The translations under genes and the position numbers were made by a program. This document shows, in pieces, positions 5,353 to 49,247 of a stretch of DNA of 64,000 bases (position 1 is its first letter; every line of letters starts with the position of its first letter). This stretch comes from Minisyncoccota bacterium (lineage in GTDB: Bacteria; Patescibacteriota; Minisyncoccia; Minisyncoccales; GCA-002788555), in NCBI GenBank assembly GCA_028716825.1, contig JAQUPA010000001.1:13071-77070 (forward strand). The letters run 5' to 3'. The notes beneath the pieces were generated by a model. That model worked only from the letters and a program-made list of their open reading frames with translations, did not search any database and had not been told where the DNA came from.

Positions 5353-6348
5353 TTAAAAGGCGTTCATAATAACTCCCACTTCTTCTTCCCATTTTGAATT
5401 TCCATTTTTACATTCATAAGTTATTTGGCCACCATCAGAGAGAGTTACTGGTGGATTTTCTCCGAGGTCCCGTTCATAACCACACCACCTTAATCTAAAT
5501 TCTTTTATGCCAGTTAATCTCTTATACATTTCAGTTCCAGCGTTTTTTGTACACGCCCTTATTCCTTCTTCCCAGGAGCCATATCTTTTGCAAGGGAGAC
5601 AGGCTATGCCACAAGGATTATTTGTTCCATAAAGCCCATTGCCCGACTGTAGATTTTGAAGGCCCATACTAGTTTCAGCGTTAGCAATGCCAAGCATAAA
5701 AGTTGGGTTAACGCCGTATTCTTTGCCCGTTTCAACATAGACATTCCCCTTTCCTATTAATGGGCTTTTAGGAAAGTTTGTTTTTAGATAATTTTCAATT
5801 TCCTCAGTCGTGGCTGCATTTGTGTCCCAAATATCAGAAGAGTTCCCACTACTGCTTGAGGGGCTTCCAGAAGAAGGATAATATTTAGACATATATTCTT
5901 CCACCATTTCTTTTAAAGAAGGCCCTTCGTAAACATACTCTTTAACGTTTAGGTCTTTTAATGTTAAAAGATTTGGGTTAATTAGCGCTAAAATTGAAGC
6001 TGAAAACAATATAATTATAAGCCCTAAGATCGCATTTAATACTTGCTCCCTTCCCTTTTCTAGCTTTGTAGGATTTCCAGAAGATGTCATTAATCGAAGC
6101 CCTCCGATTATTAACATTAACATTGCTAAGGCTCCTGCGCTAACTACGGCAAATCTATAAATATAGACAATATAATCAGGAAGAGTAGTTGTTGGGGCCT
6201 TGCCAAAAGCTTCTGGGTACTCAACTTCTGGCTCTATTTGAGCATAGGTTGTTTTAGGAGAGGCTAATTCCAAGAAAGATATAATCGCGATTAAAATCAA
6301 AAAAAAGGTAAAAGTTTTAGTAACTTTTTTGTATATAGATTTTCGCAT
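5353..6348 (-). CDS. VirB2/TrbC-type pilin module fused to a peptidoglycan-hydrolase-like (glucosaminidase/lysozyme-like) domain
   Basis: Signal peptide, then two closely spaced TM helices (YRFAVVSAGALAMLMLIIGGLRL...ILGLIIILFSASILALINPNL), the VirB2/TrbC topology. A Ser-rich linker follows. The C-terminal domain contains GVNPTFMLGIANAETSMG (resembles the glucosaminidase motif) and 6 Cys. Confidence 0.55.
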   Translation of the reverse strand: MRKSIYKKVTKTFTFFLILIAIISFLELASPKTTYAQIEPEVEYPEAFGKAPTTTLPDYIVYIYRFAVVSAGALAMLMLIIGGLRLMTSSGNPTKLEKGREQVLNAILGLIIILFSASILALINPNLLTLKDLNVKEYVYEGPSLKEMVEEYMSKYYPSSGSPSSSSGNSSDIWDTNAATTEEIENYLKTNFPKSPLIGKGNVYVETGKEYGVNPTFMLGIANAETSMGLQNLQSGNGLYGTNNPCGIACLPCKRYGSWEEGIRACTKNAGTEMYKRLTGIKEFRLRWCGYERDLGENPPVTLSDGGQITYECKNGNSKWEEEVGVIMNAF

Positions 6349-6352
6349 TATT

Positions 6353-7540
6353 TTATTTAATACAGGTACATCTTGGCATTATGTCAAGGTGGTCTGGTGC
6401 CGTATAGTAGCCTTTTTCGTATGCATACTCTGCTTCGCAAGCAGAAGTATACCCAAATTTATATCCCTCTAATCTTTTGCAATAATCCATGCAAAAATCA
6501 TGGTTTCCGCTTCTGCATTCAGGAATATTTTCTAAATTATTCTGTCCTTTAAAATAAGCAGCTGTGGTGCCGTCATTCTTACATAGACAAAAAGCAGGGT
6601 TTTTGCCCGAAGCGCTTAATTGAAAAGTTTGCACTGAGCTGAACGAATCTTCATGGGCCTGATAGCAGCTGCAAGCGACTGGATCTCCTCCATCTACATG
6701 ATTAAGTTTGGTACATTCAGAAGGAAGCCCACCTAATGCTCTGTCTTTTGGCGCTATTACTCCGTATACATTTTTATTATCTTTATGGTATTTTTGACAG
6801 AGACCCATGCAAAAGTTACCACAACTATTTGAAAGTCCTCCTTCCCTACCCTGACACTCACAGGTTTCTAAAGGTAGTCCTTCTGTACATTTAAAGTTTT
6901 TAAATTCGTCTGCATCAGGAGGACTACAGAGTGCACGAGTTAATAATTTTGCATATGCGCCTGAACTATTAACAGGAAGATCAAAAGAATTCCCCATACT
7001 TCCTAATTTTCCGAGCATTATTGAATTTGCGATAGCAATACCATTCGCAGTATAGATAAAATTCCCAGCCATTAAATCTTTTTTTATTTTATCTTCTTCG
7101 CCAGCATTACTTAATGTAGGTTCTTTTATGACTACATCTTTCAATCTTACAAGATCCGGGTTGATTGTTCTTAGGACAATATAAATACTAAAAAGAGCAA
7201 GTAGGCCTATAATTGAACGTGTTATTTTATCTCTTGCCGCAGCCTTGAGCTGGGGATTGGCAGCTGCGCCTGACCATTCTATACCGCCGATTATTATCAT
7301 AATTACTGCTAAAAAAGCGCCAACCCAAAAAGAAAATTGATAAACATACTTTATATATTCTGGTAGATTTGGTTCAGGCGGATTCCATGGATAAGTTACC
7401 TCCCAGCCTCCCCAATCTGCTGCAAAAGATAAATTAAAAATAAAAAACAGTGCAAAAACAAAAAGAATAGATAAGGCAAAAATGATTTTATTTCTCTTTT
7501 TCATATTTTTTATTTTATCCCCTATTTTGTTGGAACGCAA
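6353..7540 (-). CDS. VirB2/TrbC-type pilin module fused to a Cys-rich extracytoplasmic domain (paralog of 5353-6348)
   Basis: Same N-terminal architecture (signal peptide, then YQFSFWVGAFLAVIMIIIGGIEW...IIGLLALFSIYIVLRTINPDL). The ~200 aa C-terminal domain has 18 Cys, including CEC, CSC, CLC and CTC pairs. Confidence 0.55.
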   Translation of the reverse strand: MRSNKIGDKIKNMKKRNKIIFALSILFVFALFFIFNLSFAADWGGWEVTYPWNPPEPNLPEYIKYVYQFSFWVGAFLAVIMIIIGGIEWSGAAANPQLKAAARDKITRSIIGLLALFSIYIVLRTINPDLVRLKDVVIKEPTLSNAGEEDKIKKDLMAGNFIYTANGIAIANSIMLGKLGSMGNSFDLPVNSSGAYAKLLTRALCSPPDADEFKNFKCTEGLPLETCECQGREGGLSNSCGNFCMGLCQKYHKDNKNVYGVIAPKDRALGGLPSECTKLNHVDGGDPVACSCYQAHEDSFSSVQTFQLSASGKNPAFCLCKNDGTTAAYFKGQNNLENIPECRSGNHDFCMDYCKRLEGYKFGYTSACEAEYAYEKGYYTAPDHLDIMPRCTCIK

Positions 7541-8172
7541 GAAGCATTGCCTTTATCTCCTTGGTACCAAATAATTTTTGTGCTTTTTATGTCAACATTA
7601 TTTGTTTCTAAATAATTAAGGGCTCTTTTTTTGGCCTGTTTGCAGTCTTTTGAATTAATTATAATTGCAAAAGCGTTTTTATCTTCTAAGAAAGTTAAGT
7701 CAAAATATTGGCTAAAAAAAGGGATTTTATTTTCCATTTTAAGCATTAAAGCAGAATCTTGTTTTAAGGAAGCTTCTGTTTCTTTTCCTGTTTTAAAATT
7801 AATAACAAACGGTAGCCCCTTGAGGGGCGGATTTTTTTGGTTTTTTGTATTTAGAGTTATCTTGTAATTCTTGTTTTCCTCAAGAAAATTTATTGGTTCT
7901 ATTTTTAATGTTTTGTTTTCAATAGATGTTTTAAATTCAAAGACAGGAGATGTTTCTATTACAATTCCCTTCATGCTTTTTATTTGCGAATTAAAATATA
8001 TAAAAACATTTTTATCTATCGGGGCATCGTTGCTGTTATTTGAGGGAGAGCTGTATAATATAGAAGTTTTTGTTTCTTTTGTGAAGGAAGTTCCGCCTAG
8101 CAACCAGAACATCACCACAAAAAATAATATAATAGTAAAAATTCCTAAAAAAATTAATAATTTTGTTTTCAT
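7522..8172 (-). CDS. secreted/membrane-anchored hypothetical protein (T4SS island)
   Basis: N-terminal TM/signal, no recognisable domain. Its 3' end overlaps the next gene's start, suggesting translational coupling. Confidence 0.5.
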   Translation of the reverse strand: MKTKLLIFLGIFTIILFFVVMFWLLGGTSFTKETKTSILYSSPSNNSNDAPIDKNVFIYFNSQIKSMKGIVIETSPVFEFKTSIENKTLKIEPINFLEENKNYKITLNTKNQKNPPLKGLPFVINFKTGKETEASLKQDSALMLKMENKIPFFSQYFDLTFLEDKNAFAIIINSKDCKQAKKRALNYLETNNVDIKSTKIIWYQGDKGNASCVPTK

Positions 8173-8867
8173 CTTTCTTTTTCGTTTTTAATAATAAAAT
8201 TTGCGGCTTCCAGAATTGTATTTTCCGGAGCATTAGAACTTATTAAATAATAATAAGTTTTTTCATCTCTTTTTGCGTAGCCAAGATAAATAGTGTACGA
8301 ATATTCTATATCTCTAGTAGACTCATCTATTTGGTTATACTTAAATAAAATCGCCTTTTTACCATTTATAAGGGTTTTTTCCTCTAGTTGATTCTTGGGT
8401 AGATAAAAATTATTTTCTAAAAAATAAGGCTTAATTATTGTGCCTTCTATTAAAATAGTTTTTTTGTCTTTATTAAGAACAATAAGCCCATGATCTGAAT
8501 ATGATTTTCCTCCTTTCTTTATAAACTTTGTATTTTTTTCTGATAAGCTTTCGTTATTAACATCGTAATAAATTTCTATTTTTTCAGGAGTTTTTTCTCC
8601 TCGCCATAAATTAACCTTAAAAAGTTTATATTCTTTCGGCAGTTTTATAGGATATTTTATAGGCAGATCTGTTAAATTTTGTGCTTTTTTAAAAATATTT
8701 ATATATTTTTCTTCTGAATTTAATGGATCAAGTCCGTCTTTAAATGATTGAGTAAAAATTAAACCTTCTGGCGCTTTTTCTTTTTTATAGAAAAAAGAAA
8801 AAGACAAGATACTTAATATTATTAAAATTAATCCTGTGATAATAAAAATCTTCTTTTTTATTTGCAT
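8169..8867 (-). CDS. secreted/membrane-anchored hypothetical protein (T4SS island)
   Basis: N-terminal TM helix. Overlapping start/stop with neighbours. Confidence 0.5.
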   Translation of the reverse strand: MQIKKKIFIITGLILIILSILSFSFFYKKEKAPEGLIFTQSFKDGLDPLNSEEKYINIFKKAQNLTDLPIKYPIKLPKEYKLFKVNLWRGEKTPEKIEIYYDVNNESLSEKNTKFIKKGGKSYSDHGLIVLNKDKKTILIEGTIIKPYFLENNFYLPKNQLEEKTLINGKKAILFKYNQIDESTRDIEYSYTIYLGYAKRDEKTYYYLISSNAPENTILEAANFIIKNEKER

Positions 8868-9388
8868 GTTTTACAATTAGAAACATTAGCAGGGCTATTT
8901 TCTTCAATGCTTATGTTTTTTGGGTCTTCTGGTTGCCACTCTATGTCTAATTTTTTATAGTCAACCCCTTTTGACTTTATCCATTCCAATGCTTCTATTT
9001 TATACTGAGCATAATCTTCTTTATAGTTTTCAAATTGGTCAGCGTCGTTTAAATAGGCGTGGAGTTTTATTTTATATGATGCTTTATTTTTGCCACTGAG
9101 ATAATATTTAATTTCAAAATGGTCATTATAATACGGTAAGTATTTAGTTAATGGATTTTTGCTATAAAAATTTTCTAATTGCTTGTCTGCTTTTTTATAA
9201 TTTACTTCTGATTCTGTGTTTTCTTCGGGGTTTGTGGTTTTCTCGTTTGTGTCTCCCGTGCTTTGTTTTTTTTCTCCAATACCCCCTTGATTTATAAAGA
9301 ATATAGCGAAAAGTGCAATGATTATAATTAATGCAAGAATTGCAAATAAGAAAGAGATTGTTTGTTTACGTGTATTAAATATGCTCAT
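8858..9388 (-). CDS. membrane-anchored hypothetical protein (T4SS island)
   Basis: N-terminal TM helix and a charged extracellular region. Overlaps the upstream gene. Confidence 0.5.
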   Translation of the reverse strand: MSIFNTRKQTISFLFAILALIIIIALFAIFFINQGGIGEKKQSTGDTNEKTTNPEENTESEVNYKKADKQLENFYSKNPLTKYLPYYNDHFEIKYYLSGKNKASYKIKLHAYLNDADQFENYKEDYAQYKIEALEWIKSKGVDYKKLDIEWQPEDPKNISIEENSPANVSNCKTCK

Positions 9389-9400
9389 GTTTTAATTCTT

Positions 9401-10594
9401 TTATTTCATTATTCCTGGCACCGATGGCTCTTGGGTAGAAAAATGCATTCCGTCGCAGAAGGTATTAAAGTCTCCCATCCCACATTGTTCCTTACAGAGC
9501 CCCCAAATTGGCCAGCCATGTTTTTCAAAAACCGTAGCTACTTCAGGAGTAACTTTATATGGTCCATTACCACAATCACCAAAATTATAATTTTCATTTA
9601 TATCACAAGCAATCCCAAAGCGATGAGCTGATATCGAAGATGAGTTGCCGGAACTAGCGCCTTGTGCTTCTCTGAAACAACCGAGGGTAACGATAGGGTA
9701 TTTCATCTTGGTAAGTTCTGAGAAAATTGATTTTAAACTACCAACAACCAATTTATGTGCTGTTATTTTTCTTTTTACTTCTGAAGTGCCATTCCAAACC
9801 GTAACCTCAAAAGTTTCTAAATATTTATTTACGGCGTTACCATTTCCTCCGTACGCACCAGAGCTTAACATTTCTTTTAGACTAGCATCTAGAGCAGCTT
9901 TATCAACGCTTTCTCCTGACACACAATCGTCATTTTTTAATAATTTATAAATTGTCATTGCGCCAATATTTGAATCAGCGTGAGTCATCCCACTGTCTAT
10001 GCAGCCGTTCCAAGTCATATTTTGGTGTTGTCCATCTAAAAGGTTTACCACATAAGGAGATTTGTCGTACGGAGTATTTTTTGGTTGTCCGGGGCAAGAA
10101 TTCCCGTTTTTATCTAGCCCATCTCTGTACATGTATCCTCTATTGTAAGCTAAAAATGCATATCCAATAGCATCATCGTTGGGGTTTTCATTCAACTCCA
10201 TTTTATATACTGATTTTGCTTTGTTTTTAAGAAAATTAGCAGCTGCTAAGGTTGCTTCTTCTAACGTGGTGTATACAGTGCCATTGTCGGGGTTTTTAGT
10301 TCCTAATTTTTCACCAGAGACTGGAGATTTTTCAGGACTGCAGCCTCCTTCTCTAAAATGAACCGCTGCTAACATTTGCCAAGGAATTCCTACTTGTTTT
10401 GCAGCTTCTTGATATATTGGTTTATTTTGTTCGATTTTTGCTTTAATATCAGAACTTATTTCTGCACCCGCTATTACTGTTTCAACACAATTTGCGTCTC
10501 CGCAATAATCTTGAGCAGAAGCCTTAATAAAAATTAGGATTGTTAGCATAGTAACAAAAAAAGTTAATAACTTAATTTTTGTTTTTCTCATCAT
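9401..10594 (-). CDS. secreted cell-wall hydrolase with a C-terminal M15 (VanY-like) peptidase domain
   Basis: Signal peptide. The C-terminus has SAHRFGIACDIN and HGWPIWG...DGMHFS, matching peptidase M15 zinc-ligand motifs (SxHxxGxAxD ... WGG...D.MHFE). The N-terminal region with GIPWQMLAAVHFREGG may be a second lytic domain. Confidence 0.6.
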   Translation of the reverse strand: MMRKTKIKLLTFFVTMLTILIFIKASAQDYCGDANCVETVIAGAEISSDIKAKIEQNKPIYQEAAKQVGIPWQMLAAVHFREGGCSPEKSPVSGEKLGTKNPDNGTVYTTLEEATLAAANFLKNKAKSVYKMELNENPNDDAIGYAFLAYNRGYMYRDGLDKNGNSCPGQPKNTPYDKSPYVVNLLDGQHQNMTWNGCIDSGMTHADSNIGAMTIYKLLKNDDCVSGESVDKAALDASLKEMLSSGAYGGNGNAVNKYLETFEVTVWNGTSEVKRKITAHKLVVGSLKSIFSELTKMKYPIVTLGCFREAQGASSGNSSSISAHRFGIACDINENYNFGDCGNGPYKVTPEVATVFEKHGWPIWGLCKEQCGMGDFNTFCDGMHFSTQEPSVPGIMK

Positions 10595-11685
10595 TTATTT
10601 AAAAGCGATCTTAAGAAGGTATGAGGTTCTAAAAGTTGGGTGGGTTTTTGGACGTCATTTCCATACCATTGTGTAGAATTGGTTGTTCCAGCTGTATAAA
10701 GCTCAAAATGGCACATCGCACTTCCTCCAGAGGTGTTTGCTATTATATTTCCAATGTGTTGGCCTGATTGTATTTCTTGCCCCATACTAACTAACGGAGT
10801 GATTTCTGTATAGTGCGCAACATAGTCTCCGTGGTTAATCATCACACTGTCAGTCCCTGCAAAAAAATTTTTTATTATCAAGACGACTTTTCCTTCTTTT
10901 ATGGCATAAACCCTACAAGCTTCGGGGGCAGAGGAGGGGTTTGTAATTATTGATCTTGGACAAGTGCCTCGGGGCACGGTTATATCTAAGCCCGCATGCC
11001 TTCTGCCGCCACTTCTTTGTGCTCCGAACATGCCTCCATCTGGGCAGCTGGCTCCCGAATTTTGAGAACTGCCTGGAGTATAGCAGGGAGGAGAGTTTAT
11101 TCTGTTAATTGCTTCTTGAGATGGATTTTTAACTGGGAATCCGTTTCCGCTTAAGTCAGTAGTTGCCCCGTTTGGAGTAGCACAGACTTCTGGCTTCATC
11201 ATTTCTCCAAAGCCCATTATAAACAGAGGAGCCATAATCATAGTGGCTGCGATTACCAAATAAAGTGTTCTTCTTTCTTTAAGAACAGAGATTACGTTTA
11301 TTGTCCACATTGGCAGGAGACCTCCTATAAAAGGTATTTGTTCTAAGATGAAAGAAACTATTATTTGTTTTAAGTAGGCTTTTGATTTTCCTAAGACGCC
11401 GCTTACCCTTTGTCCCTCGTCTTTTACCTTCTCTGCAGATTTTTTAACACTAGCAGGTCCTTTTGTTGGTGTAGCCCCATGACGTTTTAACCAAGTTCCA
11501 ATAACTATTGCAGCAATAAGATCTATAAAAACGCTTACGAAGGGTATTGATGCGCTTACAATTAGCTCAAAAAGATTCGCAAAAATATCTGCAAGGTCGC
11601 AGATTATTGCGAAAGTTAACATTATAAGAAAAATCGGGCTCAGAGAACTTACTTTATTTTCTTCTTGTTCCATAAAAGAAATCAA
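10591..11685 (-). CDS. membrane-anchored M23 (LytM-type) metallopeptidase
   Basis: Multi-TM N-terminus. M23 motifs RRHAGLDI, INHGDYVAHY and CHFELY (HxxxD, HxH). Confidence 0.7.
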   Translation of the reverse strand: MISFMEQEENKVSSLSPIFLIMLTFAIICDLADIFANLFELIVSASIPFVSVFIDLIAAIVIGTWLKRHGATPTKGPASVKKSAEKVKDEGQRVSGVLGKSKAYLKQIIVSFILEQIPFIGGLLPMWTINVISVLKERRTLYLVIAATMIMAPLFIMGFGEMMKPEVCATPNGATTDLSGNGFPVKNPSQEAINRINSPPCYTPGSSQNSGASCPDGGMFGAQRSGGRRHAGLDITVPRGTCPRSIITNPSSAPEACRVYAIKEGKVVLIIKNFFAGTDSVMINHGDYVAHYTEITPLVSMGQEIQSGQHIGNIIANTSGGSAMCHFELYTAGTTNSTQWYGNDVQKPTQLLEPHTFLRSLLNK

Positions 11686-11688
11686 GCT

Positions 11689-13524
11689 TTATTTATTTTC
11701 TGTTTTCCTTTCAACCCCTTCGATCCCTTCTTCTAACTCCTCTTTGGCTTTTCTTATCGCCAAAATTTGTTCTGGATTTGTAGTGATAATTTGGTCTTCT
11801 CCAAAAGAGGCAACTACTTTTATGGCGGCATGTTTTGCGCCTGCGAAAAAGAGTCCTTCGCCAACTCTTGCCTGCAAAAGTAAATATCTTTCTTCTTTTG
11901 TTAAATTAAAAGTTTGACTTACCGTGTCTATGGTCGCTGGTGATTGTTTTAAGAGCATTTGGAGAGAAGAGTTCGAGATAATTGATTTTCCATATTCAGA
12001 TATCATAAAATCATTAACGTCTTGGGTGATTGTTGAAACACCAAGATAATATTTTCTTGCACGCTTTGCTATTCCAAAAAGGAAAGAAGCAGCTTCTTCG
12101 TGTTTCATCATAACCCAAGCTTCATCCACAATAAGATATCTTTTTTTGAGTTCTGATCTTATGATGTTCCATATATAGTGCAAAATTAAATACATTGCGA
12201 CTGGTCTTAATTCTTCCTCAAGGTCTCTTATTGAAAAGACTACCATTTTACTTCCTTCTAATTCTACGCTTGTGTGCCGGTTTAAAAATCCAGAGTAAGC
12301 GCCTGTAGTGTATTTTTCAAGACGTTTTGCGATAGACTCCCCTCCCTCCATTCCTTCAAGGACTTTTTGCAAGTCAGATAAAAGCGGAGGAGTTTGATTA
12401 TAAAAGTCAGAATCAGCAGTAATATCTCTTGCAGAATAAGTAAGATTTATTGCTTGGTCTATAATTGCATCTTCCTCTGGAGTTAGGCCTCCGAGCATTA
12501 AACGCAAGAGTCCCACAAGGTTTATTATATTTGAACGGAAAGTTCCTTCTTTTGGTTCTCCCTCAACAGCAGGAGGCAGATCAAAAGGATTTATGTGGTG
12601 GCTTGAGCTCAAAGAAATATTAAAATAAGATCCTCCTACTGTTTCTGCAAGGTATTTATATTCGTTTTCAGGGTCAATTACGATAACATCGATATCTTGA
12701 ATTAAAGAGCGGAAGATTTCTAATTTTTGGAAATAGCTTTTTCCGCTACCGCTTTTTGCAAAAGTTACCATATTTGCATTTTCGAGAGAAAATCTGTCAA
12801 AGATAATAAGAGAATTATTATGACGGTTTATCCCATAAAGTATGCCTCTGTCTGAAGTGAGCTCAAACGAAACAAAAGGAAAAACGGTAGATAGAGGCGA
12901 GGTGTTCATTGAGGTATTTGTGTTTAACTGGTCCATTGAAAGGGGCGAGACAGAATAAAAACCCTCTTTTTGGCGGAAAACAGCAGATTTTGTGTAAATA
13001 AGACTTGATTCAAAAATTTGAGTTATACTTTTTTCTATTTTTTCAAGCTGGCTTTTCTTGTCCGCATATATTGAAAAATATACTCCAACTTTAAACATTT
13101 TTTCTTCAGCCCTTGTCAATTTGTCCCTCAGTTCTTCAATGTTTTGTTGAGCAGCTTGTAGCCCTGGGTCTCTAATTAATCCCTTCTCTTCTCTTTCCAT
13201 AATTAGTGCTTCAACTTCTGTAAGTTTTTTCTGTAGTTGTCTTATAATCTTTTCTGTTGATACGGGATAGACAAAAATTGAAATATCAATTATTTCGTCC
13301 AAATTTATGATTGGGGAAAGCCAGCCCGTGGCAACTGTTTGAGGGAATGTTAAAACAAAAAAAGTTTTTGCGATTTTTTCCCCTATTTTTATATAATTTT
13401 GGAAAACCCCAACAGCTGATGGCGCTATAATGTCGTAAATATTGATAAGCCGTTCTTCTTTTTCTACTTGAAGTTCTTTTTTTGTCTCTGGATTTTCTTC
13501 TTCTTGTTTTTTTGTTGGGAACAT
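11689..13524 (-). CDS. virB4: type IV secretion/conjugation ATPase VirB4/TrbE/PrgJ-like
   Basis: 611 aa. Walker A FAKSGSGKSYF, Walker B LIVDEAWVMM. Size and layout are typical of VirB4. Confidence 0.85.
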   Translation of the reverse strand: MFPTKKQEEENPETKKELQVEKEERLINIYDIIAPSAVGVFQNYIKIGEKIAKTFFVLTFPQTVATGWLSPIINLDEIIDISIFVYPVSTEKIIRQLQKKLTEVEALIMEREEKGLIRDPGLQAAQQNIEELRDKLTRAEEKMFKVGVYFSIYADKKSQLEKIEKSITQIFESSLIYTKSAVFRQKEGFYSVSPLSMDQLNTNTSMNTSPLSTVFPFVSFELTSDRGILYGINRHNNSLIIFDRFSLENANMVTFAKSGSGKSYFQKLEIFRSLIQDIDVIVIDPENEYKYLAETVGGSYFNISLSSSHHINPFDLPPAVEGEPKEGTFRSNIINLVGLLRLMLGGLTPEEDAIIDQAINLTYSARDITADSDFYNQTPPLLSDLQKVLEGMEGGESIAKRLEKYTTGAYSGFLNRHTSVELEGSKMVVFSIRDLEEELRPVAMYLILHYIWNIIRSELKKRYLIVDEAWVMMKHEEAASFLFGIAKRARKYYLGVSTITQDVNDFMISEYGKSIISNSSLQMLLKQSPATIDTVSQTFNLTKEERYLLLQARVGEGLFFAGAKHAAIKVVASFGEDQIITTNPEQILAIRKAKEELEEGIEGVERKTENK

Positions 13525-13531
13525 AAAAATA

Positions 13532-14125
13532 TTAGTCTATTTTCGGGAAAATTGGCATTGTTTCTTTGTCGGTTTTGTCGGGATTATAAAAACCCCAAAG
13601 TAGTTCTACAATTTCATCGCTTCCGAGCAAGAGAGCGCTTACGCCTGTCCCACGAAGACCATTTATTACATATTGAGACCTTAAGTTAATTTGACTTTTC
13701 CATCTTTTAAATTCTTTGTCTGACATTTCTTTTACTGGCGGGTAAAAAGGCACAACAATATAGAAATTTTTTGATATTAAATTTGCCATTGAAGAGAGCG
13801 ATCTTATAAATTCACGATATTCATTTGCTTGGATTTTTAAAAGCTCATTTTCTTGTTTTGCTTCAACTTCTTCCAATTGTTTTAAGTAGGGTTTTAAGTT
13901 TAATTTTCTTGATTGAATAAGTATTTGAATTTCAAAATCAAGAGAATTTAGGAAGCTCTGAAATTGATAAATAACAGCTTCTTTTTCTTCGTCAGACATT
14001 AAGTCAAAATTAATGGATGAGGCCATTAAAATATTTCTCCAGCCGCCTTGTTTTAAGATGACGACATCTTCTTTTATTTTTTTTATTGTCACAAAGTCCT
14101 GGGTTGTTGCTTTTGCTCCAATCAT
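13532..14125 (-). CDS. hypothetical T4SS-associated protein
   Basis: 197 aa with no clear motif. Its position between the VirB3-like gene and VirB4 suggests a system component. Confidence 0.4.
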   Translation of the reverse strand: MIGAKATTQDFVTIKKIKEDVVILKQGGWRNILMASSINFDLMSDEEKEAVIYQFQSFLNSLDFEIQILIQSRKLNLKPYLKQLEEVEAKQENELLKIQANEYREFIRSLSSMANLISKNFYIVVPFYPPVKEMSDKEFKRWKSQINLRSQYVINGLRGTGVSALLLGSDEIVELLWGFYNPDKTDKETMPIFPKID

Positions 14126-14136
14126 AATATTTAAAA

Positions 14137-14598
14137 TTATTCTTTATTTTTAATAATATTGTTCTCGGGCCGAAATTCTTCTTCTGTTTCGTTCTTTTTC
14201 GCTTCTAACATCCAAGCCATTTTCTTTAATTTACTTTCTTCTGCCCTTCTTTGGGGTACGGTTTCTTCTTTTTTTTCTATAACTTTTTCAACCTCTTTTA
14301 AGGATACCATTTCTTGGCCTTTTTTAAACCAAATATATTCTTTTGGGTTTAAAAAATAAGAAATACCGTATGAGAATATTGAAACTAAATCTTGCCCTTG
14401 ATATTTAAACAGGGCAAAGGCTGCTCCTCCTCCGATAAGCAGAATACCCAAAAGGAAAGAAATAAAAATATTTTTAAAAATCAAATATAAAACTATAACA
14501 AAAATTAATGGACCAGCCATTAAGAAAAATTGTCTCAGAGAAAGAGGTCCTATAATTTTTGATTCTGATTCTATAAATTGGGGAACGTAATATTGCAT
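14137..14598 (-). CDS. VirB3/PrgI-like small membrane protein (putative)
   Basis: 153 aa with two adjacent TM helices near the N-terminus, located just upstream of VirB4 as in Gram-positive T4SS loci. Confidence 0.45.
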   Translation of the reverse strand: MQYYVPQFIESESKIIGPLSLRQFFLMAGPLIFVIVLYLIFKNIFISFLLGILLIGGGAAFALFKYQGQDLVSIFSYGISYFLNPKEYIWFKKGQEMVSLKEVEKVIEKKEETVPQRRAEESKLKKMAWMLEAKKNETEEEFRPENNIIKNKE

Positions 14599-15183
14599 TT
14601 ATTCTTTTTTGATTTTTTTACCAAGCGTTTCTCCCTCTGTTTTTGCTGATTCTAGTTCTTCCGAAAGTCCTTTTAAAATCTCGTTAATTTCATCTCGATC
14701 AGTTTTTTTCCTTACTTGTATTTTTTTTTCTTTTTTAACCTCCGGTGTATTTTCTATTTGGGAAGTTTTTTCTTCGGTAGATATCTTTAATGACGGGAAT
14801 TCTGTTTTTGCTCTCTCTTCGGCTTTTCCAATGATTGTGTCAATTGTGTCTTCCCCTGGTATTGTGGGTTCCCCTTCTGTTTTTGGATAAAGCATATCAA
14901 GACCCTCTTTGTAGTTTGAGAAAATCTGCGTTTCCATTTCTTTTGCAATATCTCGGCTTAACTCCTCGCTAAAACCAAATTCTTTTTTAATTTCTCCTGC
15001 CACTTTATTTTGCGACAAACTTCCATTTAGAACTTTTTCAAATATTGTATCGAGCTTATCTATGCCTTCGTCGCCTTCGCCCTTAATTTGGAACCGTCTT
15101 GCTATGTCGCAAACTTTCTCAAAATTTTTTCTATCTTTAAGAGCATTTTCTATGTTCTCTGGCAATTGATTTTCATCATCCAT
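14599..15183 (-). CDS. acidic/Lys-rich hypothetical protein
   Basis: 194 aa, highly charged, no TM helix. Confidence 0.4.
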   Translation of the reverse strand: MDDENQLPENIENALKDRKNFEKVCDIARRFQIKGEGDEGIDKLDTIFEKVLNGSLSQNKVAGEIKKEFGFSEELSRDIAKEMETQIFSNYKEGLDMLYPKTEGEPTIPGEDTIDTIIGKAEERAKTEFPSLKISTEEKTSQIENTPEVKKEKKIQVRKKTDRDEINEILKGLSEELESAKTEGETLGKKIKKE

Positions 15184-15228
15184 ATTTTTAATGAGTATTT
15201 TGGTAAAAAATTAAAAGTTTATGGGCTG

Positions 15229-17496
15229 CTATGACGTAAGGTCGATACCAGACTTTCTTATTAGTTGCGCATTTGGTCGTCCTGTTCCTCCTTTTGCTCT
15301 TGGTCCGCCAAGTTTTTCAATTAATTCATTTGCCTGGGAAGGATTTTGAACAATGTTTTGTATATTTGCTTTAACCGTGGTTATATATCCTGTTGGGTCA
15401 GCTGCTCGGTCTGGTGCTCCTTCTGTTAATCGAGCATGAATAGCTTTTCCTTTTTCTGGGCTTGAAAGTATTGTGCTTAAATCTTTTATATCAGAGGACC
15501 TTATTGTGGCTTCTACAACAAGCCTATCTTTTATGCCGCCTGCGCCATTATTTAAACTATCATCCCAGTAACTCTTTTTGGATGCACTAGTTTTTTCGTG
15601 GCGCGTCATTTTGCTAAATAGTAAATCAAGATTTTCTCTTCTGTTTAATCCTCGTGATGGGTTTGTTGAAACAATATGAGGGTTTGCTATCTCGGTTTTT
15701 TCTAGTAACTTTTTATATTTCGGATTTTTCTCTAGCTTTCCTTTTAATTTACCCCAGGCTCCTTGATCAATGTCTATGCCTTGCTTTTGGGCGGCTTCAA
15801 GGATTGCCCAAGCTCTTGCTTCTCTTCTTTTGCCAATTGTTGAATATCCTCCTATTTCTTTTCCGGCAAGTTCTGTTGCTGCTGCCCCAAGTCTCTTTTC
15901 ATCAAGGTTTGCGTACCTTGGCTGCCATTTTTTGTGATGTTTTTCTACTTCTTCAGGGCGATGTCCAGTAAGTGCCCCTGGTTTTATAGGCGTCCATTTA
16001 CTATCCTCGAGCTTGCTCGCCCAATTATATAAACTTGTTCCTGGTTTGCCAAAAACGCCTTTCCCTTTTTCGGCTCCTTTCAAGGCAGTATATCCAATAG
16101 CAGCTCCTGTGCCTACAGCTGTTAATTTGCCAAGTTTTTTGACTCCACCGATAACTTTAGCACCAACCGTGCCGCCACTTTTTACTGCTGCAAAAAGGCC
16201 AATTACCATTACGATAACAGGAAAACCTACCGTGACCAATAAAGCAATAATATTTCCAAGAAGTTCGTCTCCCACGATCGAAGCCATATCTATTGAACTT
16301 GAAACTTCTAACATTTGAGTTGCAAGGTATAAAAAGAAAGAAGCAGCAACTCCGATAAAGGACCACTGGATAACATATTGCCACCATTTTTTAAAATAGT
16401 CCCTTGTTGCAGGAAGAATGTAAGCGGCAAATGCAAGCGGCGCTAAAATTACAAGTAGCCAAATTGCAAGGTTTCTTACTAAAAAGAGAGCTGTCATTGT
16501 CATTAAAGTCCCTATTGCCATTACCATTGCAACAGCTGCTCCTATAAGATAAATTGTTGGTGCTAAGATTCCCGGATTAGGTTGATTACTTGCCCCTGCA
16601 CATTCAGCTAATATTTTATTTGCCTCGTCTTCGCTATATTTTTCACTCAAACTTTCGAGAATTGCCCAACCAGTTTCTTCTGCGTTTGGAGCTTTATCTT
16701 TTATGCATGCTTCGAAATCTGACCACTCACCTCCTAAGTTTCCACGAGGACCAGAAAGTTCTCCGCATGAGCCGTATCTCTCCTCGCATTGAGCTTTTCC
16801 AAGTACTGCCCAAGTTAAATACTGAGAAAACGTTGCTGCTGGCATTACACCACTAAATCCTGCTGAAGCAGTGGAAATAAATAAGCTTATATAATCGTTA
16901 TCTGCGTCTACTAATTTTTCAAAGCCAATGCCCCGGACAAAATAATAAACAATAATATTTCCAGCATCTACAATAAGCCCTACAAAAACAGGCGCAAAGT
17001 TGACAAGTAAAGCCATAATAATTAATACCGGGAGTAATTTTTTAATGCCATAAGCCTCAATTCCTAAAATTGTAGCAATTGCAATAGTAACAAAAGCCAA
17101 AATGAAGATCATGTTTGCCAGGGGCATAGTAACGTCTAGTCCAGCTTTAATGAAAGGATTATCTGCTTTTGTGAGAGAGAATCCCCCGATTTTATTTGTT
17201 GCTGACCATATTAGAGTATCTGTAAGTGCTTTAATAAAAATTCCTGCTAAAGAGGATATAAAGAAAGCCATAAGAGCAATTGGTCCTACGACAAGCAGGA
17301 ATAACAAAAGAAGTATAGATTTTGGGATAAATTGGTCAGCACCGAAAAGAGCAAACGCAAAACGGAAAGGAATTATTAGGCCTATTAAAATTAAAAAGAG
17401 CGAAATAAATACTACTTTTTTGTTTTTAGGATTCTTGCAAAAAGACCAAGAACGATAATAGAGATTTTTTATTTTTTGTTTCAGAGGCTCCTCCAT
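15229..17496 (-). CDS. polytopic membrane protein, VirB6/TrbL-like
   Basis: 755 aa with at least 8 TM helices in two blocks, an extracytoplasmic Cys-containing loop and a long charged C-terminal tail. This architecture resembles VirB6/TrbL. Confidence 0.55.
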   Translation of the reverse strand: MEEPLKQKIKNLYYRSWSFCKNPKNKKVVFISLFLILIGLIIPFRFAFALFGADQFIPKSILLLLFLLVVGPIALMAFFISSLAGIFIKALTDTLIWSATNKIGGFSLTKADNPFIKAGLDVTMPLANMIFILAFVTIAIATILGIEAYGIKKLLPVLIIMALLVNFAPVFVGLIVDAGNIIVYYFVRGIGFEKLVDADNDYISLFISTASAGFSGVMPAATFSQYLTWAVLGKAQCEERYGSCGELSGPRGNLGGEWSDFEACIKDKAPNAEETGWAILESLSEKYSEDEANKILAECAGASNQPNPGILAPTIYLIGAAVAMVMAIGTLMTMTALFLVRNLAIWLLVILAPLAFAAYILPATRDYFKKWWQYVIQWSFIGVAASFFLYLATQMLEVSSSIDMASIVGDELLGNIIALLVTVGFPVIVMVIGLFAAVKSGGTVGAKVIGGVKKLGKLTAVGTGAAIGYTALKGAEKGKGVFGKPGTSLYNWASKLEDSKWTPIKPGALTGHRPEEVEKHHKKWQPRYANLDEKRLGAAATELAGKEIGGYSTIGKRREARAWAILEAAQKQGIDIDQGAWGKLKGKLEKNPKYKKLLEKTEIANPHIVSTNPSRGLNRRENLDLLFSKMTRHEKTSASKKSYWDDSLNNGAGGIKDRLVVEATIRSSDIKDLSTILSSPEKGKAIHARLTEGAPDRAADPTGYITTVKANIQNIVQNPSQANELIEKLGGPRAKGGTGRPNAQLIRKSGIDLTS

Positions 17497-20610: not shown

Positions 20611-20682
20611 GCCCTCTTGGTATAATGGATAACACGCGACGCTTCGGACGTCGAGTTGGGGGTTCGAATCCCTCAGAGGGCA
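20611..20682 (+). tRNA. tRNA-Arg (anticodon TCG), CCA not encoded
   Basis: Acceptor GCCCTCT/AGAGGGC, D-arm GGTATAATGGATAA, anticodon stem CGACG/CGTCG with loop CTTCGGA, T-arm GGGGGTTCGAATCCCTC. Confidence 0.8.
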
Positions 20683-20699
20683 CGAGATAGCTAAAAATA

Positions 20700-20880
20700 G
20701 ATTAAAGGATGCGGGTTTCCCGAAATTGTCTGCGAGTGAAGGGAGTAATTACAATTTCGAGGATCCCGTTATCTCGAAATTTCCCCAAATAGATTTATTT
20801 ACAGACAAACGGGATCGCGAAAATCTAACTTCGCTCTACTTCAGAGATTTTCGGGACAAATCCTGCCGGGCGCATAAAAA
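20700..20880 (+). ncRNA. GC-enriched structured leader or small RNA between tRNA-Arg and the pilin gene (three consecutive stem-loops)
   Basis: Three pairings: CCCGAAATTGT/ACAATTTCGAGG, GATCCCGTT/AACGGGATC and CGAAAATCT/AGATTTTCG. GC is well above the local background. Confidence 0.35.
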
Positions 20881-20888
20881 TTAAAAAT

Positions 20889-21290
20889 ATGAAAAAAAAT
20901 TATAAATTATTTCTTTTAATATTTATTTTTATTATTTCTCCATTTATTATTCAGGCAGCTGGCTTGGTGCCTTGTGGTGGAGATGGTGAGCCTAGCTGTG
21001 GTCTTTGTCATCTCTTTGTAATGATAAGAAGCGTAATTGTATTCTTAACTGGAATTGCTGCTGTTGTGCTTGCAATAATGCTTATTGTTGGGGGAATTAT
21101 GTTTGTTACAGCACATGGGAATCCTGAATGGGTGACAAAAGCAAGAAAGACCATTACAGGAGCGATAATTGGTTTTCTGATAGTTATTATGTCTTGGATT
21201 ATTGTAAATTCGGTCATAACGTTTGCTACTGGCAGTGAGAATATATTTCAAAACATGGGTCCTTGGCATAAAATCCAATGTAATCCTTAA
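20889..21290 (+). CDS. stand-alone VirB2/TrbC-type pilin
   Basis: 133 aa. Signal peptide, then two TM helices (VIVFLTGIAAVVLAIMLIVGGIMFV and GAIIGFLIVIMSWIIVNSVITF). Same module as the N-termini of 5353-6348 and 6353-7540. Confidence 0.55.
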   Translation: MKKNYKLFLLIFIFIISPFIIQAAGLVPCGGDGEPSCGLCHLFVMIRSVIVFLTGIAAVVLAIMLIVGGIMFVTAHGNPEWVTKARKTITGAIIGFLIVIMSWIIVNSVITFATGSENIFQNMGPWHKIQCNP

Positions 21291-21432
21291 GCCATTTAAA
21301 CTCTTCAAGATTTAGATTGTTTTTAGCGAATTTAATTTTTTAACGAATCTTTTTTATTAAACCAGGATGGTAATATTTTGATTTGAGTATTTGACCCTTG
21401 AAAAAAATAATTAAATTTTATATAAACAAGAT

Positions 21433-21461
21433 ACAGACAATATTTATTGTCTGTTTTTTTA
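21433..21461 (+). terminator. rho-independent terminator
   Basis: ACAGACAATATTTATTGTCTGT hairpin followed by a T7 run. Confidence 0.7.
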
Positions 21462-21556
21462 ACCAAGGATTGTATCCATCCCGATTTTCTTTAAATTTAT
21501 GGTTTAGAAAATCGTGAATCCTCGAGTTCTTAATAAAATTAAAATTTTAACGAATT

Positions 21557-21630
21557 CGGGATAGCTCAACTGGCACCTGCCCGCCAACGTCCTGATCCGT
21601 AGGTGATGGCAGGCGGGGGATAGGAGTCAG
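21557..21630 (+). other. tRNA-like / GC-rich hairpin element of unknown identity
   Basis: Starts with the tRNA-like 5' part GGGATAGCTCAACTGG, but no D-stem partner or T-arm can be found. Contains a strong hairpin CCTGCCCGCC...GGTGATGGCAGG. GGGATAG is repeated at both ends. Confidence 0.3.
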
Positions 21631-21637
21631 TTTAAAT

Positions 21638-21710
21638 TGCCCCGTTAGCTCAATTGGTAGAGCAGATCCCTCTTAAGGATAAGGTTGAGCGTTCGAGTCG
21701 CTCACGGGGC
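21638..21710 (+). tRNA. tRNA-Lys (anticodon CTT), CCA not encoded
   Basis: Acceptor GCCCCGT/ACGGGGC, D-arm GCTCAATTGGTAGAGC, anticodon loop CTCTTAA, T-arm GAGCGTTCGAGTCGCTC. Confidence 0.85.
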
Positions 21711-21768
21711 ATAAATTTGACGGGATAAAAGTCTTGCCGGATGCAATAAAATTAATATTATTAAAAAT

Positions 21769-29430: not shown

Positions 29431-29538
29431 AAATAGGTAATGTTGTTGACAAAGTTATCTTTATTTCGTATAATAGTAAATGTAAAAGAATATTTAATAA
29501 AGTATTCAAAAAAGGTCAAAATAAAAAAAACCAAAAAA

Positions 29539-30852
29539 ATGAAAAATATTAAGAATTTTTTAATTCAGAAAGCAAAAATATTGTTTTTGGGAGCATGCGT
29601 ATTTCAGCTTGCTTTTTTGCCAATTGGTCTTGCACCAAAAACAGCTCTTGCTGCCAGTTCCAACGATGTAATATATGGTGGAACATACTCTCTTTCTGAT
29701 TTAGCTGCAAAAATTAACTCAGGAAGCGATGGTAGACATGGTGATATTGGTGTTATTTTCAAGACTCTTGGAATTTATCCAAATGAATTCAACGGAAACA
29801 TTGATGGCGCAAATCGTCAAACTGTTGATGGTTGGGTTTATAAAGATGGGAGAGTCGTTTTGGCGAATGGCACAGTTGTTGCTTCCGGAAATGTTATTTC
29901 TGCAGGAAGAAGTAATCTTTCAGGATCTACACCAGATGTTTTTGGATTGCCAATCTATTGGAGACATCCCTCTGTGAGTTTTAATTCCTCAAGACTATCT
30001 GCTTTTATTCATATTGTAAATGGTAGGTTTTCTTGGGCGGTAGTTAAGTCTTGTGGAAATCCAATCAAGGTTTGGGGTTCACCTTCTGCTACTTTACATA
30101 AAGAAATAAGAAACGTTACAAGAAATAGCGGTTGGTCAACAGGCACTGTTGAAGGAAGAAGGGGAGATACAGTTGAGTATAGGCTTACTTATGACGTTGG
30201 TGACGAATCCTTAAATAATGTCTGGCTTTATGATGCTTTGCTAGCAAATACTGCTGATGGCAAAAAAAGCTACAGAGAATATTTATCTAACCCATGGGGG
30301 CTTGAACCATCGCAATATTTTCTTTGGTACCCAAGTGGAGTAGATATTGCAGGATATAAAGTTTCAAGAATGCTTGCTTGGTATGCTCCAGGAAGAGCTC
30401 CAAGAGCGCATGGTATTGCAACTTTTAGAGCAAAAGTAGAAAGTAATACACCAAAAGATACTTATATCTGTAATGACGCGGCTTTAAGAGCAGATAGGTT
30501 AGGAGTTCGTTTTAGTAACAAAGTTTGTGTTAAAATTATTGTTCCTTCGGGACCAACTCCAACACCAACTCCTACTCCAACACCAACACCAACGCCAACT
30601 CCTACTCCGACACCTACTTCTACTCCAACTCCAACTCCAACTCCAACACCTGAAGGTGAGGTCCTTGGAGCGTATGTTGAGAAGGAACTTCCAAAAATTC
30701 CAATCACAGGTGCTTCTTCGGCAGTAGCTCTAACATTTGTTTCTTCCGCATTGGGTTATGGAGCAGTTGCAAGAAAGAAACTCAAAGAAAAACTTTTGGG
30801 TTCAAAACTCCAGAACGCAATGGATATTGCAAGAAGGAAGAAAGGACTCTAA
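29539..30852 (+). CDS. cell-surface protein with signal peptide, (PT)n linker and sortase-type C-terminal sorting signal
   Basis: Signal peptide MKNIKNFLIQKAKILFLGACVFQLAFLP. A 30-residue PTPTPT... repeat at 30553-30650. C-terminus KIPITGASS, then a hydrophobic segment and an RKKLKEK tail (LPxTG-like). Confidence 0.65.
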   Translation: MKNIKNFLIQKAKILFLGACVFQLAFLPIGLAPKTALAASSNDVIYGGTYSLSDLAAKINSGSDGRHGDIGVIFKTLGIYPNEFNGNIDGANRQTVDGWVYKDGRVVLANGTVVASGNVISAGRSNLSGSTPDVFGLPIYWRHPSVSFNSSRLSAFIHIVNGRFSWAVVKSCGNPIKVWGSPSATLHKEIRNVTRNSGWSTGTVEGRRGDTVEYRLTYDVGDESLNNVWLYDALLANTADGKKSYREYLSNPWGLEPSQYFLWYPSGVDIAGYKVSRMLAWYAPGRAPRAHGIATFRAKVESNTPKDTYICNDAALRADRLGVRFSNKVCVKIIVPSGPTPTPTPTPTPTPTPTPTPTPTSTPTPTPTPTPEGEVLGAYVEKELPKIPITGASSAVALTFVSSALGYGAVARKKLKEKLLGSKLQNAMDIARRKKGL

Positions 30853-47848: not shown

Positions 47849-49225
47849 ATGAGATCAAGAGACATTTTTGACAGTCTTTCGCCGATTGACTATCGATACT
47901 GGGACGAGGAAGTGGCGAGGTATCTCTCCGAGAATGGGTTCACCACTTACAAACTTCTAGTAGAGCTTGCGCTTGCAAAGGTGCTTCATCGTCAAGGTAT
48001 CTGCTCAAAAGCCGCTGTCCAAGAAATCGAGTCGGCTTGTAGTAAGGTGAGGACCGCTGAGGTGTATGACGAAGAAGATCGAATTCGTCACGACATCCGT
48101 GCCCTCGTAAACTGTATCCGCGCCAAGGTGAGCGAGAAAACGAAGCCATACGTTCATATGACGGCAACCTCGTATGACATCGTTGATTCAGCAAACGCTG
48201 TTCGTTACCAGGAGGTCGTTAAGGACGTACTTCTTCCAACACTCATGAACTTGGAAGAGGTTCTCATCGCGATTGCACTTCGCGAAGCCGAGACAGTACA
48301 GGTTGGTAGGACGCACGGCCAGCATGCAGTTCCGATTACTTTCGGATTCGCGATCGCCGGCTATGTGAGTCGCCTGGGCGGGTCAATTGAGAAGTTGAAA
48401 AAGCTTTCTTCTGAGCTTCCTGGGAAGTTCTCGGGAGCAGTCGGAGCATATAATGCTTCGTCGCTTTTCTTCGATGACCCCGAGGACTTTGAGGCCAAAG
48501 TGCTCGCCGAGTTAGACCTTAAGCCAGCTGGGCACTCAACGCAGATTGTGCCACCCGAACCTCTGACTCGGCTTTTCTGCGAAGTTACGATCGCGGCAGG
48601 AGTACTGGCCAACTTGGCCGATGATATGCGGCATCTCCAGCGGACGGAGATCGGAGAGGTGGGTGAGGAGTTTGAAGCGGCGCAGGTTGGATCTTCCACC
48701 ATGCCGCAGAAACGCAATCCCATCAACTTCGAGAACGTTAAGAGCTTATGGGAGATTGTTATGCCCCGCATCGTGACGGTGTTTATGGATCAGATCAGTG
48801 AGCATCAGCGCGACCTTACCAACTCTGCGTCTGCACGGACTTATGGCGAGGTTATCACCTACGTGGTTTCAATGGCAAAGCGCCTGACGCGCACGATGAA
48901 AAAGCTTACAGTTGATCGTGCTAACCTGGAGCGAAACCTTGCCATACAGGAAGGGTTGGTGGTTGCAGAGCCTCTCTATATCATCCTTGCAGCGTTGGGA
49001 CATCCTGATGCCCATGAGAAAGTGAGGATACTCACACTGCAGGCTCAAAGCGAGAAACGGCCGCTCCAAGAGGTTTTTGCCGATGACACAGAGATGAAAG
49101 TGTATCTTGAGAAGATGACGCCATATCAACGGCAGATCCTTTCAGATCCGTCTCTCTACATCGGCATTGCTGCAAAGAAAGCAAGAGATGTCGCAGAACA
49201 TTGGAAGCAAAGGTTAGGAGGTTGA
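47849..49225 (+). CDS. purB: adenylosuccinate lyase
   Basis: 458 aa, fumarate-lyase superfamily (GSSTMPQKRNP). GC about 52%, far above the background. RBS TAGGAGG. Confidence 0.85.
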   Translation: MRSRDIFDSLSPIDYRYWDEEVARYLSENGFTTYKLLVELALAKVLHRQGICSKAAVQEIESACSKVRTAEVYDEEDRIRHDIRALVNCIRAKVSEKTKPYVHMTATSYDIVDSANAVRYQEVVKDVLLPTLMNLEEVLIAIALREAETVQVGRTHGQHAVPITFGFAIAGYVSRLGGSIEKLKKLSSELPGKFSGAVGAYNASSLFFDDPEDFEAKVLAELDLKPAGHSTQIVPPEPLTRLFCEVTIAAGVLANLADDMRHLQRTEIGEVGEEFEAAQVGSSTMPQKRNPINFENVKSLWEIVMPRIVTVFMDQISEHQRDLTNSASARTYGEVITYVVSMAKRLTRTMKKLTVDRANLERNLAIQEGLVVAEPLYIILAALGHPDAHEKVRILTLQAQSEKRPLQEVFADDTEMKVYLEKMTPYQRQILSDPSLYIGIAAKKARDVAEHWKQRLGG

Positions 49226-49247
49226 ACTTCGAGGTATTTATGCCCGT

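Follow-up and report, generated by a model that had tools for sequence, protein, structure and literature searches.

What does a bacterium of the candidate phyla radiation (CPR) do with pilin-like proteins that carry large extra domains? The question is raised by two adjacent genes, here called A and B, in a 64,000-nucleotide stretch of contig JAQUPA010000001.1 (Minisyncoccota bacterium, assembly GCA_028716825.1, positions 13,071 to 77,070 of the forward strand); this whole stretch is referred to below as the window. A and B close a chromosomal type IV secretion system (T4SS) operon in a CPR bacterium of the Paceibacteria type. Across Patescibacteria this T4SS is conserved and adjoins the replication origin, and the one species tested needs it for epibiotic growth; its role in Saccharibacteria was called "completely unknown" in a 2024 perspective (PMC11665869). 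The fusions bear directly on this question. Our analysis indicates that the design of a pilin module joined to a C-terminal cargo is real, modular and recurrent in CPR bacteria, and not rare there. We estimate a probability of about 0.5 that the module docks extracellular cargo to the T4SS or its pilus, with A acting as a VirB1-like hydrolase and B as an adhesin-like protein.

Pilin modules and C-terminal domains of proteins A and B

A preliminary description of the locus, made from the sequence alone, reported two open reading frames (ORFs) encoding paralogous pilin fusions. Both ORFs were found on the minus strand, 4 nt apart, and the strings quoted from them, YRFAVVSAGALAMLMLIIGG and YQFSFWVGAFLAVIMIIIGG, occur in the translations. 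Protein A was 100% identical to P0001, deposited as "glucosaminidase domain-containing protein, Ca. Pacebacteria". The longest ORF of gene B covered 6353-7540 on the minus strand (395 aa from TTG). The true start is most likely ATG 7504, not TTG 7540, because the resulting 383-aa protein is identical to deposited P0009, a purine-rich stretch (GGGGA) lies ~14 nt upstream of this ATG, and this ATG, 17 nt beyond the stop of the upstream gene (end at 7522), leaves the two genes without overlap. A and B were both 100% matched by a Candidatus Pacebacteria metagenome-assembled genome (MAG) contig. They or their orthologues were present at full length with the same architecture on at least four independent assemblies, which rules out a chance ORF or a gene-fusion artefact. 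A and B aligned with 32% identity (E 3e-18) over roughly their first 150 residues, which bears out the reported paralogy for that part. Similarity ended there and the C-terminal domains are unrelated; A and B are therefore paralogous only in their N-terminal module.

Three hydrophobic segments were found in each protein, in agreement with the described signal peptide and two transmembrane (TM) helices. The signal peptide of A has a basic n-region and a 15-residue hydrophobic core, and its xxA↓Q site was kept in homologues P0002-P0004 and at locus L004. The predicted signal peptidase I sites, TYA↓Q in A and SFA↓A in B, were kept among orthologues. AlphaFold2 (AF2) modelled helices at residues 56-87 and 93-123 of A (predicted local distance difference test [pLDDT] score 82-94) and at residues 47-79 and 84-114 of B (pLDDT ~90). 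The hairpin loops of both proteins are net basic (4 K/R against 2-3 D/E, read from the sequence) and thus fit an out-in-out topology, by which everything after TM2 would lie outside the cytoplasmic membrane.

PF18895 (T4SS_pilin) matched A with 35.1 bits (1.4e-8, residues 67-120) and B with 27.1 bits; the curated cut-off is 26.6. A profile built from the module found short PF18895 members down to E 2e-23, and the NCBIfam model "pilin-like conjugal transfer protein", from Mycoplasma integrative and conjugative elements, weakly matched all three pilin modules in the window. Judged by these matches, the membership of A and B in the Patescibacteria VirB2-like family is solid. The preliminary description had named two outcomes that would speak against it, a lack of any pilin-like match and a signal peptide joined to an unrelated anchor; PF18895 matched both proteins and neither outcome was found.

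The hairpin is continued in both proteins by a large extra domain, as described (~200 residues after TM2 in A and ~260 in B). In A, a Ser/Gly-rich linker of low model confidence (residues 157-172) precedes a compact domain with six cysteines. An NCBIfam peptidoglycan hydrolase model matched this domain (4e-7), and PF01832 (Glucosaminidase) matched it with 4e-5 at residues 203-270 in a first scan and with 1.4e-5 in a later scan. Precomputed PF01832 matches were present on orthologues P0002 and P0004 and on cargo homologues P0005 and P0006. The top six Foldseek matches (E 0.04-0.9, probability up to 1.0) were LytB of Streptococcus pneumoniae (three entries), SagB (two entries) and Acp of Clostridium perfringens, with the Staphylococcus aureus SagB and SagB-SpdC structures at ranks 4-5. 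Among PDB sequences, a profile of the domain matched LytB with E 0.017 and, more strongly, the phage cell wall hydrolase 8yxk with E 2e-3. Glu225 (motif NAETS, codon 5674-5676), the candidate catalytic residue, was invariant in six homologues. The tetrapeptide YERD (residues 291-294) is possibly a counterpart of the YA(S/T)D tetrad, although no tool aligned it. Glu225 aligned with LytB Glu585, the single essential acid of that enzyme (PMC4633669), and its column shows Q in the chain of the LytB E585Q mutant. Family models, fold matches and profile matches all point to the suggested glucosaminidase-like domain, and we consider that A carries a predicted GH73-like peptidoglycan N-acetylglucosaminidase with a conserved proton-donor Glu. 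A reading of A as a phage holin/endolysin was rejected: the PHROG endolysin match was weak (E 0.009), no phage genes lay nearby, and the genes around A form a T4SS operon.

The C-terminal part of B contains exactly the 18 cysteines reported, all within residues 193-381 and including CEC (215-217), CSC (278-280), CLC (306-308) and CTC (379-381). Thirteen cysteine columns were invariant in six orthologues. The domain matched no Pfam family even at E<=10, no NCBIfam or PHROG family and no PDB entry by sequence, and the only fold match of the protein was to its hairpin; AF2 confidence over the region was 50-85. Seven full or partial homologues were found among 5.8 billion proteins, with one GTDB species representative, so that by sequence this Cys-rich domain is without detectable relatives outside a narrow lineage. 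Among orthologues of B the pilin module was 64-93% identical and the linker with its Cys-rich cargo 30-77%. The cargo of B therefore evolves much faster than its pilin module.

Cargo exchange and breadth of the fusion architecture

Comparison with three other assemblies (loci L003, L004 and L005) revealed that the domain behind the module can be replaced. The L004 protein at the position of A was 57% identical to A over 121 residues (17-137), and the similarity stopped at the linker. L003 has the GH73 form; in L004 and L005 its place is taken by a different Cys-rich cargo of ~300 aa. Conversely, the GH73 cargo of P0005 and P0006 is attached to an ordinary anchor with a single TM helix. The part that is conserved is the pilin module; the C-terminal domain is a replaceable cargo, and the swaps fall at a fixed junction immediately behind TM2.

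The module profile matched 92,903 clusters at 50% identity. The best 150 of these 92,903 matches, dominated by multi-module proteins, were taken from the exhaustive search, and no proportion of long to short members is claimed from them. Wall-hydrolase domains were present on 14 of the 57 long members scanned (SLT on nine; M15_4, VanY, C39_2, NlpC/P60 and SLT_3 on one each), and elsewhere in CPR bacteria SLT or C39 domains sit on closely similar pilin modules. In the pilin subfamily containing P0249 and P0258, whose modules are 89% identical and whose C-termini are unrelated, at least 100 aa followed the module in 34 of 56 metagenomic loci, and these extensions fell into at least 10 mutually unrelated groups. 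The preliminary description had regarded a pilin with an enzyme or adhesin attached as unusual; this is correct relative to textbook pilins, but within CPR bacteria the architecture is recurrent and modular, as the counts above indicate.

The 56 loci of the latter subfamily (L007-L062, JGI metagenomes) are marked by the loop motif SAGNNASMEKAK. Pfam clearly recognised only SLT among their cargoes; several cargoes show a H..D...HxH pattern that, read by eye, resembles LAS/M15 metallopeptidases. No match to the A-type module was found in the JGI metagenomes. The set of short homologues comprised 120 entries of 68-161 aa and was apparently limited in length, since the query's own parent proteins were absent from it. 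Among these matches listed, the INPxL motif occurred in 23 of 120 short, cargo-less pilins, and INP(D/N)L was accordingly rejected as a junction or cleavage motif specific to fusions.

Two further observations concern other members of the family. P0016, a Cys-rich pilin fusion of 549 aa from a Magasanikbacteria MAG, is encoded directly downstream of a DsbA/Thioredoxin_4 gene (L002, 9215-11650) and far from any T4SS gene; its neighbour hints at oxidative folding of the Cys-rich cargo. Many of P0143-P0287 (e.g. P0143, P0162 and P0178) are single ORFs of 2-17 tandem pilin hairpin modules. In P0143 (1775 aa), 17 stretches were matched by profile search and 16 by a local hidden Markov model; P0162 (501 aa) has 6 modules with gaps of at most 1 residue. 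An SLT domain ends some of these proteins (P0144, P0172). The tandem ORFs may be real polytopic proteins, processed polyproteins or gene-calling merges.

The T4SS operon and other features of the window

The genes of the cluster form a same-strand operon (5353-17496) that begins with VirB6 and in which B and then A are the final two genes (Table 1). The genes dnaN, dnaA, rnpA and yidC adjoin A and B, which places the locus next to the replication origin. An identical gene order ending at yidC-rnpA-dnaA-dnaN was found at L003, L004 and L005. The hydrolases encoded after VirB4 differed among these three loci, being either NlpC/P60 with a GH73-like region or C39_2 with M15, and a Big_5 or PEGA protein occupied the slot upstream of B. 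The cluster is an MPF-FATA-like, oriC-proximal, relaxase-poor T4SS of the Patescibacteria kind (PMC10633639, PMC12102498).

Table 1. Coordinates of genes A and B, their parts, and the T4SS genes of the window
Feature	Position	Strand	Basis or remark
Gene A, pilin-module/GH73-like glucosaminidase fusion	5353-6348	-	ORF, 331 aa, ATG; last gene of T4SS operon
Gene A, signal peptide, aa 1-36	6241-6348	-	Cleavage TYA↓QIEPE, predicted from sequence
Gene A, pilin module, aa 37-130	5959-6240	-	EVEYP motif, TM1, basic loop SSGNPTKLEKGREQ, TM2, INPNLL; PF18895, AF2
Gene A, GH73-like domain, aa 173-331	5356-5832	-	PF01832, NCBIfam, Foldseek, profile against PDB
Gene B, pilin-module/Cys-rich fusion	6353-7504	-	383 aa from ATG 7504; PF18895 4.3e-6
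Gene B, signal peptide, aa 1-28	7421-7504	-	Cleavage SFA↓ADWGGWE, predicted from sequence
Gene B, pilin module, aa 29-122	7139-7420	-	Translation, AF2, orthologue identity
Gene B, linker and Cys-rich domain, aa 123-383	6356-7138	-	18 Cys; no family match
Membrane-anchored Ig-like (Big_5) protein	7522-8172	-	PF13205 6e-6; immediately upstream of B
Secreted Peptidase_M15_4 protein (cell-wall peptidase)	9401-10594	-	PF13539 7e-9
Membrane-anchored Peptidase_M23 protein	10591-11685	-	PF01551 3e-9; NCBIfam endopeptidase matches; directly downstream of VirB4
VirB4-like ATPase	11689-13524	-	PF19044 TraG P-loop 1e-24
TrsD/TraC-like protein (N-terminal part of VirB4)	13532-14125	-	NCBIfam VirB4_plasma 3e-11, TrsD 7e-8
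PrgI/VirB3-like protein	14137-14598	-	PF12666 2e-8
194-aa protein of the operon	14599-15183	-	Between VirB6 and PrgI/VirB3
VirB6/TrbL-like polytopic membrane protein	15229-17496	-	PF04610 2.4e-9; first gene of cluster
Short canonical T4SS_pilin gene, candidate major pilin	20889-21290	+	133 aa; PF18895 5e-9

Two small anchored proteins are encoded between the M15_4 peptidase and the Big_5 protein. Together, the three small minus-strand genes at 7522-9388 and the gene at 14599-15183 encode conserved proteins that are N-terminally anchored or charged and have at most a weak Ig-like assignment. These four genes may represent the missing VirB8-like or other structural parts of the T4SS.

Three pilin modules were found in the window: those of A and B and the short pilin at 20889-21290, which likewise scored above the PF18895 cut-off. 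The short pilin gene stands alone between tRNA-Arg and tRNA-Lys (20611-21712). It is transcribed in the opposite direction to the operon, whose VirB6 end is ~3.4 kb away. The L003 contig encodes a comparable short pilin, P0033.

Elsewhere in the window, the segment 23845-27052 contains 23S and 5S rRNA genes, and the ORFs listed there are spurious; no 16S gene was found in the 64 kb, and the rRNA operon is apparently unlinked. G+C content rises to 0.47 at 47849-50000, against ~0.33 elsewhere, over a 458-aa ORF that by eye resembles proteins of the adenylosuccinate lyase family; the region is possibly a recent horizontal acquisition. A 470-aa secreted protein encoded at 29440-30852, probably a surface protein tethered to the wall or membrane, has a hydrophobic anchor at its C-terminus and a long (PT)n repeat; family matches were confined to this low-complexity repeat.

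Possible roles of the fusions and comparison with known systems

If the pilin module docks cargo to the T4SS, Sec would insert the hairpin of A or B into the membrane, and the T4SS would treat the inserted hairpin as a pilin that docks to VirB4, VirB3 and VirB6; VirB4 is the pilin dislocase of classical systems. This would either keep the cargo at the secretion apparatus or let it co-assemble, as a minor subunit, with the short pilin of 133 aa, which is available as a possible major subunit. A would cut glycan strands locally, the role of VirB1, on the bacterium's own wall, the host wall or both. B would probably mediate contact or recognition at the host surface. Delivery by A or B at a pilus tip, as put forward in the preliminary description, is conjecture. 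We favour a role beyond simple anchoring because the module is strongly conserved relative to its cargo and is reused with many cargo types.

Several findings weigh against this docking role. The GH73 assignment has soft spots: PF01832 scored 24.6-26.2 bits on A, below the gathering score of 30.2, and covered profile positions 3-80 of 123, and the AF2 model of the region is moderate in confidence, with pLDDT >80 only at residues 171-220 and 251-270. The adhesin or toxin label given earlier to the Cys-rich domain of B found no direct support. Some pilin fusions elsewhere do not lie beside a T4SS cluster. The link to classical pilins is also at issue. The preliminary description had assigned the module to the VirB2/TrbC type, and PF18895 scores above the cut-off, a hairpin with pLDDT ~90 and an operon with VirB4, VirB3 and VirB6 support homology to the VirB2-like pilins of Patescibacteria. 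However, PF04956 (classical TrbC/VirB2) matched neither A nor B at E<=0.1, and profiles of two pilin modules (A1 and A9) found no solved conjugative pilin in PDB. A sequence link to solved conjugative pilins was rejected because PDB searches by phmmer and by profile, whether run with A and B or with the two module profiles, gave only chance matches to membrane proteins. The one pilin among the fold matches, the Aeropyrum pernix conjugative pilin 8dfu, was one of hundreds of generic helical hairpins. Other PF18895 members did match PF04956 (10 of 120 short ones among the matches listed, 6 of 57 long ones), and the two families therefore overlap; the membership of A and B in classical VirB2/TrbC is thus indirect. 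Finally, a T4SS pilus has yet to be observed in a CPR bacterium, and pili are normally missing from T4SSs of the Gram-positive type (PMC12102498, PMC12857230); for Patescibacteria a pilus-like structure is so far only a possibility (PMC12857230). By a rough estimate, a VirB2-type lattice would be crowded if each subunit bore a domain of 20-30 kDa, and a filament role beyond that of a minor subunit seems implausible.

An alternative that we regard as less likely than docking, though as the likeliest of its rivals, is that the hairpin was co-opted purely as a membrane anchor at the base of the T4SS and that neither A nor B enters a filament. A would open the cell's own peptidoglycan for channel assembly, like PrgK or TraG of pIP501, and B would be a structural or periplasm-like accessory. 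Hydrolases of monoderm T4SSs do consist of an N-terminal TM anchor and extracellular hydrolase domains (PMC12102498), the GH73 cargo of P0005 and P0006 has an ordinary single-TM anchor, and the operon in the window also encodes a TM-anchored M23 peptidase; the unobserved CPR pilus (PMC12857230) and the inferred steric objection point the same way. A mere anchor would not, however, need the family motifs that the hairpin has in common with short pilins, nor a conservation so far above that of the cargo, and many unrelated types of cargo are found on the module. A fast-evolving Cys-rich domain also suits surface exposure better than a place at the base. A bolder reading, a polymorphic pilin-effector system in which the T4SS_pilin hairpin of Patescibacteria is a general cargo carrier, inserted by Sec, extracted by VirB4 and then polymerised or presented by the T4SS, seems unlikely to us. 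A pilus would then be decorated with exchangeable hydrolases and Cys-rich binders, and GH73, SLT, M15, C39, NlpC/P60 and Cys-rich cargoes would attach to and breach the host wall.

It is improbable that the module serves as an export carrier that is cut after TM2 near INP(D/N)L, so that a hydrolase and a Cys-rich protein are set free in soluble form and a pilin of normal size is left. Such a cut would suit the conserved motif at the junction and the low-confidence linker behind it, the tandem multi-pilin polyproteins in databases would likewise need processing to monomers, and classical TrbC/VirB2 pilins undergo C-terminal proteolytic maturation. However, we found no protease gene and no evidence of a cleavage site, the presence of INPxL in short cargo-less pilins leaves no fusion-specific processing signal, and a signal peptide alone is enough to export soluble proteins. 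That A is a housekeeping enzyme, a SagB-like anchored glucosaminidase that trims nascent glycan strands, with B an unrelated envelope protein and the place in the operon incidental, is very improbable. The fold matches of A do include SagB and SagB-SpdC of S. aureus, and membrane-anchored GH73 enzymes are known housekeeping enzymes. Against this, the position as last two genes of the T4SS operon is kept in four assemblies, the anchor of A is homologous to T4SS pilins, and the same module bears a non-enzymatic Cys-rich cargo in L004 and L005, which indicates that the GH73 function is dispensable at the A locus.

Whichever way the cargo is held, the pilin module often carries peptidoglycan hydrolases or fast-evolving Cys-rich domains that are swapped between close relatives. 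A 2025 survey counted every PF18895 match as a small VirB2 pilin and found most genomes apparently without VirB1 (PMC12102498); the missing VirB1 function may reside within pilin genes. The T4SS may serve to display proteins where the cell meets its host, rather than to move DNA, and pilin arrays may be cargo repertoires rather than antigenic variants. Were the hairpin a general carrier, cargo delivery and not DNA transfer would be the purpose of the T4SS and its pilin arrays in epibiotic growth.

The nearest known relatives of A and B are the VirB2-like pilins (PF18895) of Patescibacteria, whose T4SS was covered by a survey of 3,035 genomes (PMC12102498) and shown, together with its pilin array, to be essential in Ca. 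Southlakia epibionticum (PMC10633639). VirB2-like pilin genes are unusual for monoderm systems (PMC10633639, PMC12102498). A and B have in common with these pilins the family, the signal peptide and hairpin topology, and an MPF-FATA-like operon near dnaA (VirB6, PrgI/VirB3, TrsD, VirB4 and cell-wall hydrolases); more than one divergent pilin gene per locus is a further likeness. The known pilins are treated as small (68-161 aa among the 120 matches listed), whereas A and B have 331 and 383 aa. No mention of pilin fusions with enzyme or Cys-rich cargo was found in PMC10633639, PMC12102498 or its supplement, nor any description of such VirB2-like pilins in the papers searched.

On the enzymatic side, the best matches of the domain of A are GH73 enzymes (LytB, SagB/Atl, Acp and phage 8yxk), with which it shares the proton-donor Glu; A differs in scoring below the Pfam gathering score, in its compact six-Cys domain and in its N-terminal partner. 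Closest in function are the VirB1-type hydrolases of Gram-positive T4SSs, PrgK of pCF10, TraG of pIP501 and CD419/TrsG (PMC12102498); like A they are membrane-anchored extracytoplasmic wall hydrolases encoded in T4SS operons, and the presumed shared job is local wall opening for the apparatus. They combine SLT and CHAP (or M23) domains with an ordinary TM anchor, whereas A combines a GH73-like domain with a pilin-homologous anchor; Pfam scans found no SLT or CHAP match in A or B. FlgJ of beta- and gamma-proteobacteria is similarly a component of an envelope-spanning machine fused to GH73, which cuts the wall where the structure passes (PMC4752226, PMC8517470). FlgJ is, however, exported by flagellar type III secretion via the flagellar channel and not inserted by Sec as a hairpin, and the N-terminal parts are unrelated.

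Besides FlgJ, the systems nearest to A and B in overall plan are modular type IV pilins such as PilB of Streptococcus sanguinis, which joins a pilin module to an adhesive module (PMC8179133); they belong to an unrelated superfamily. Type IV pilins are made with a class III signal peptide and contain only one N-terminal helix. In A and B, a long signal peptide ending in an AxA-type site for signal peptidase I is followed by the two helices of a VirB2-like hairpin, and no G↓F(T/S)L(I/V)E-type prepilin motif was read in their sequences. In both cases a conserved pilin module is joined to a C-terminal functional domain, and the modular pilins of the PilB type act as minor subunits that give the filament a new function (PMC8179133).

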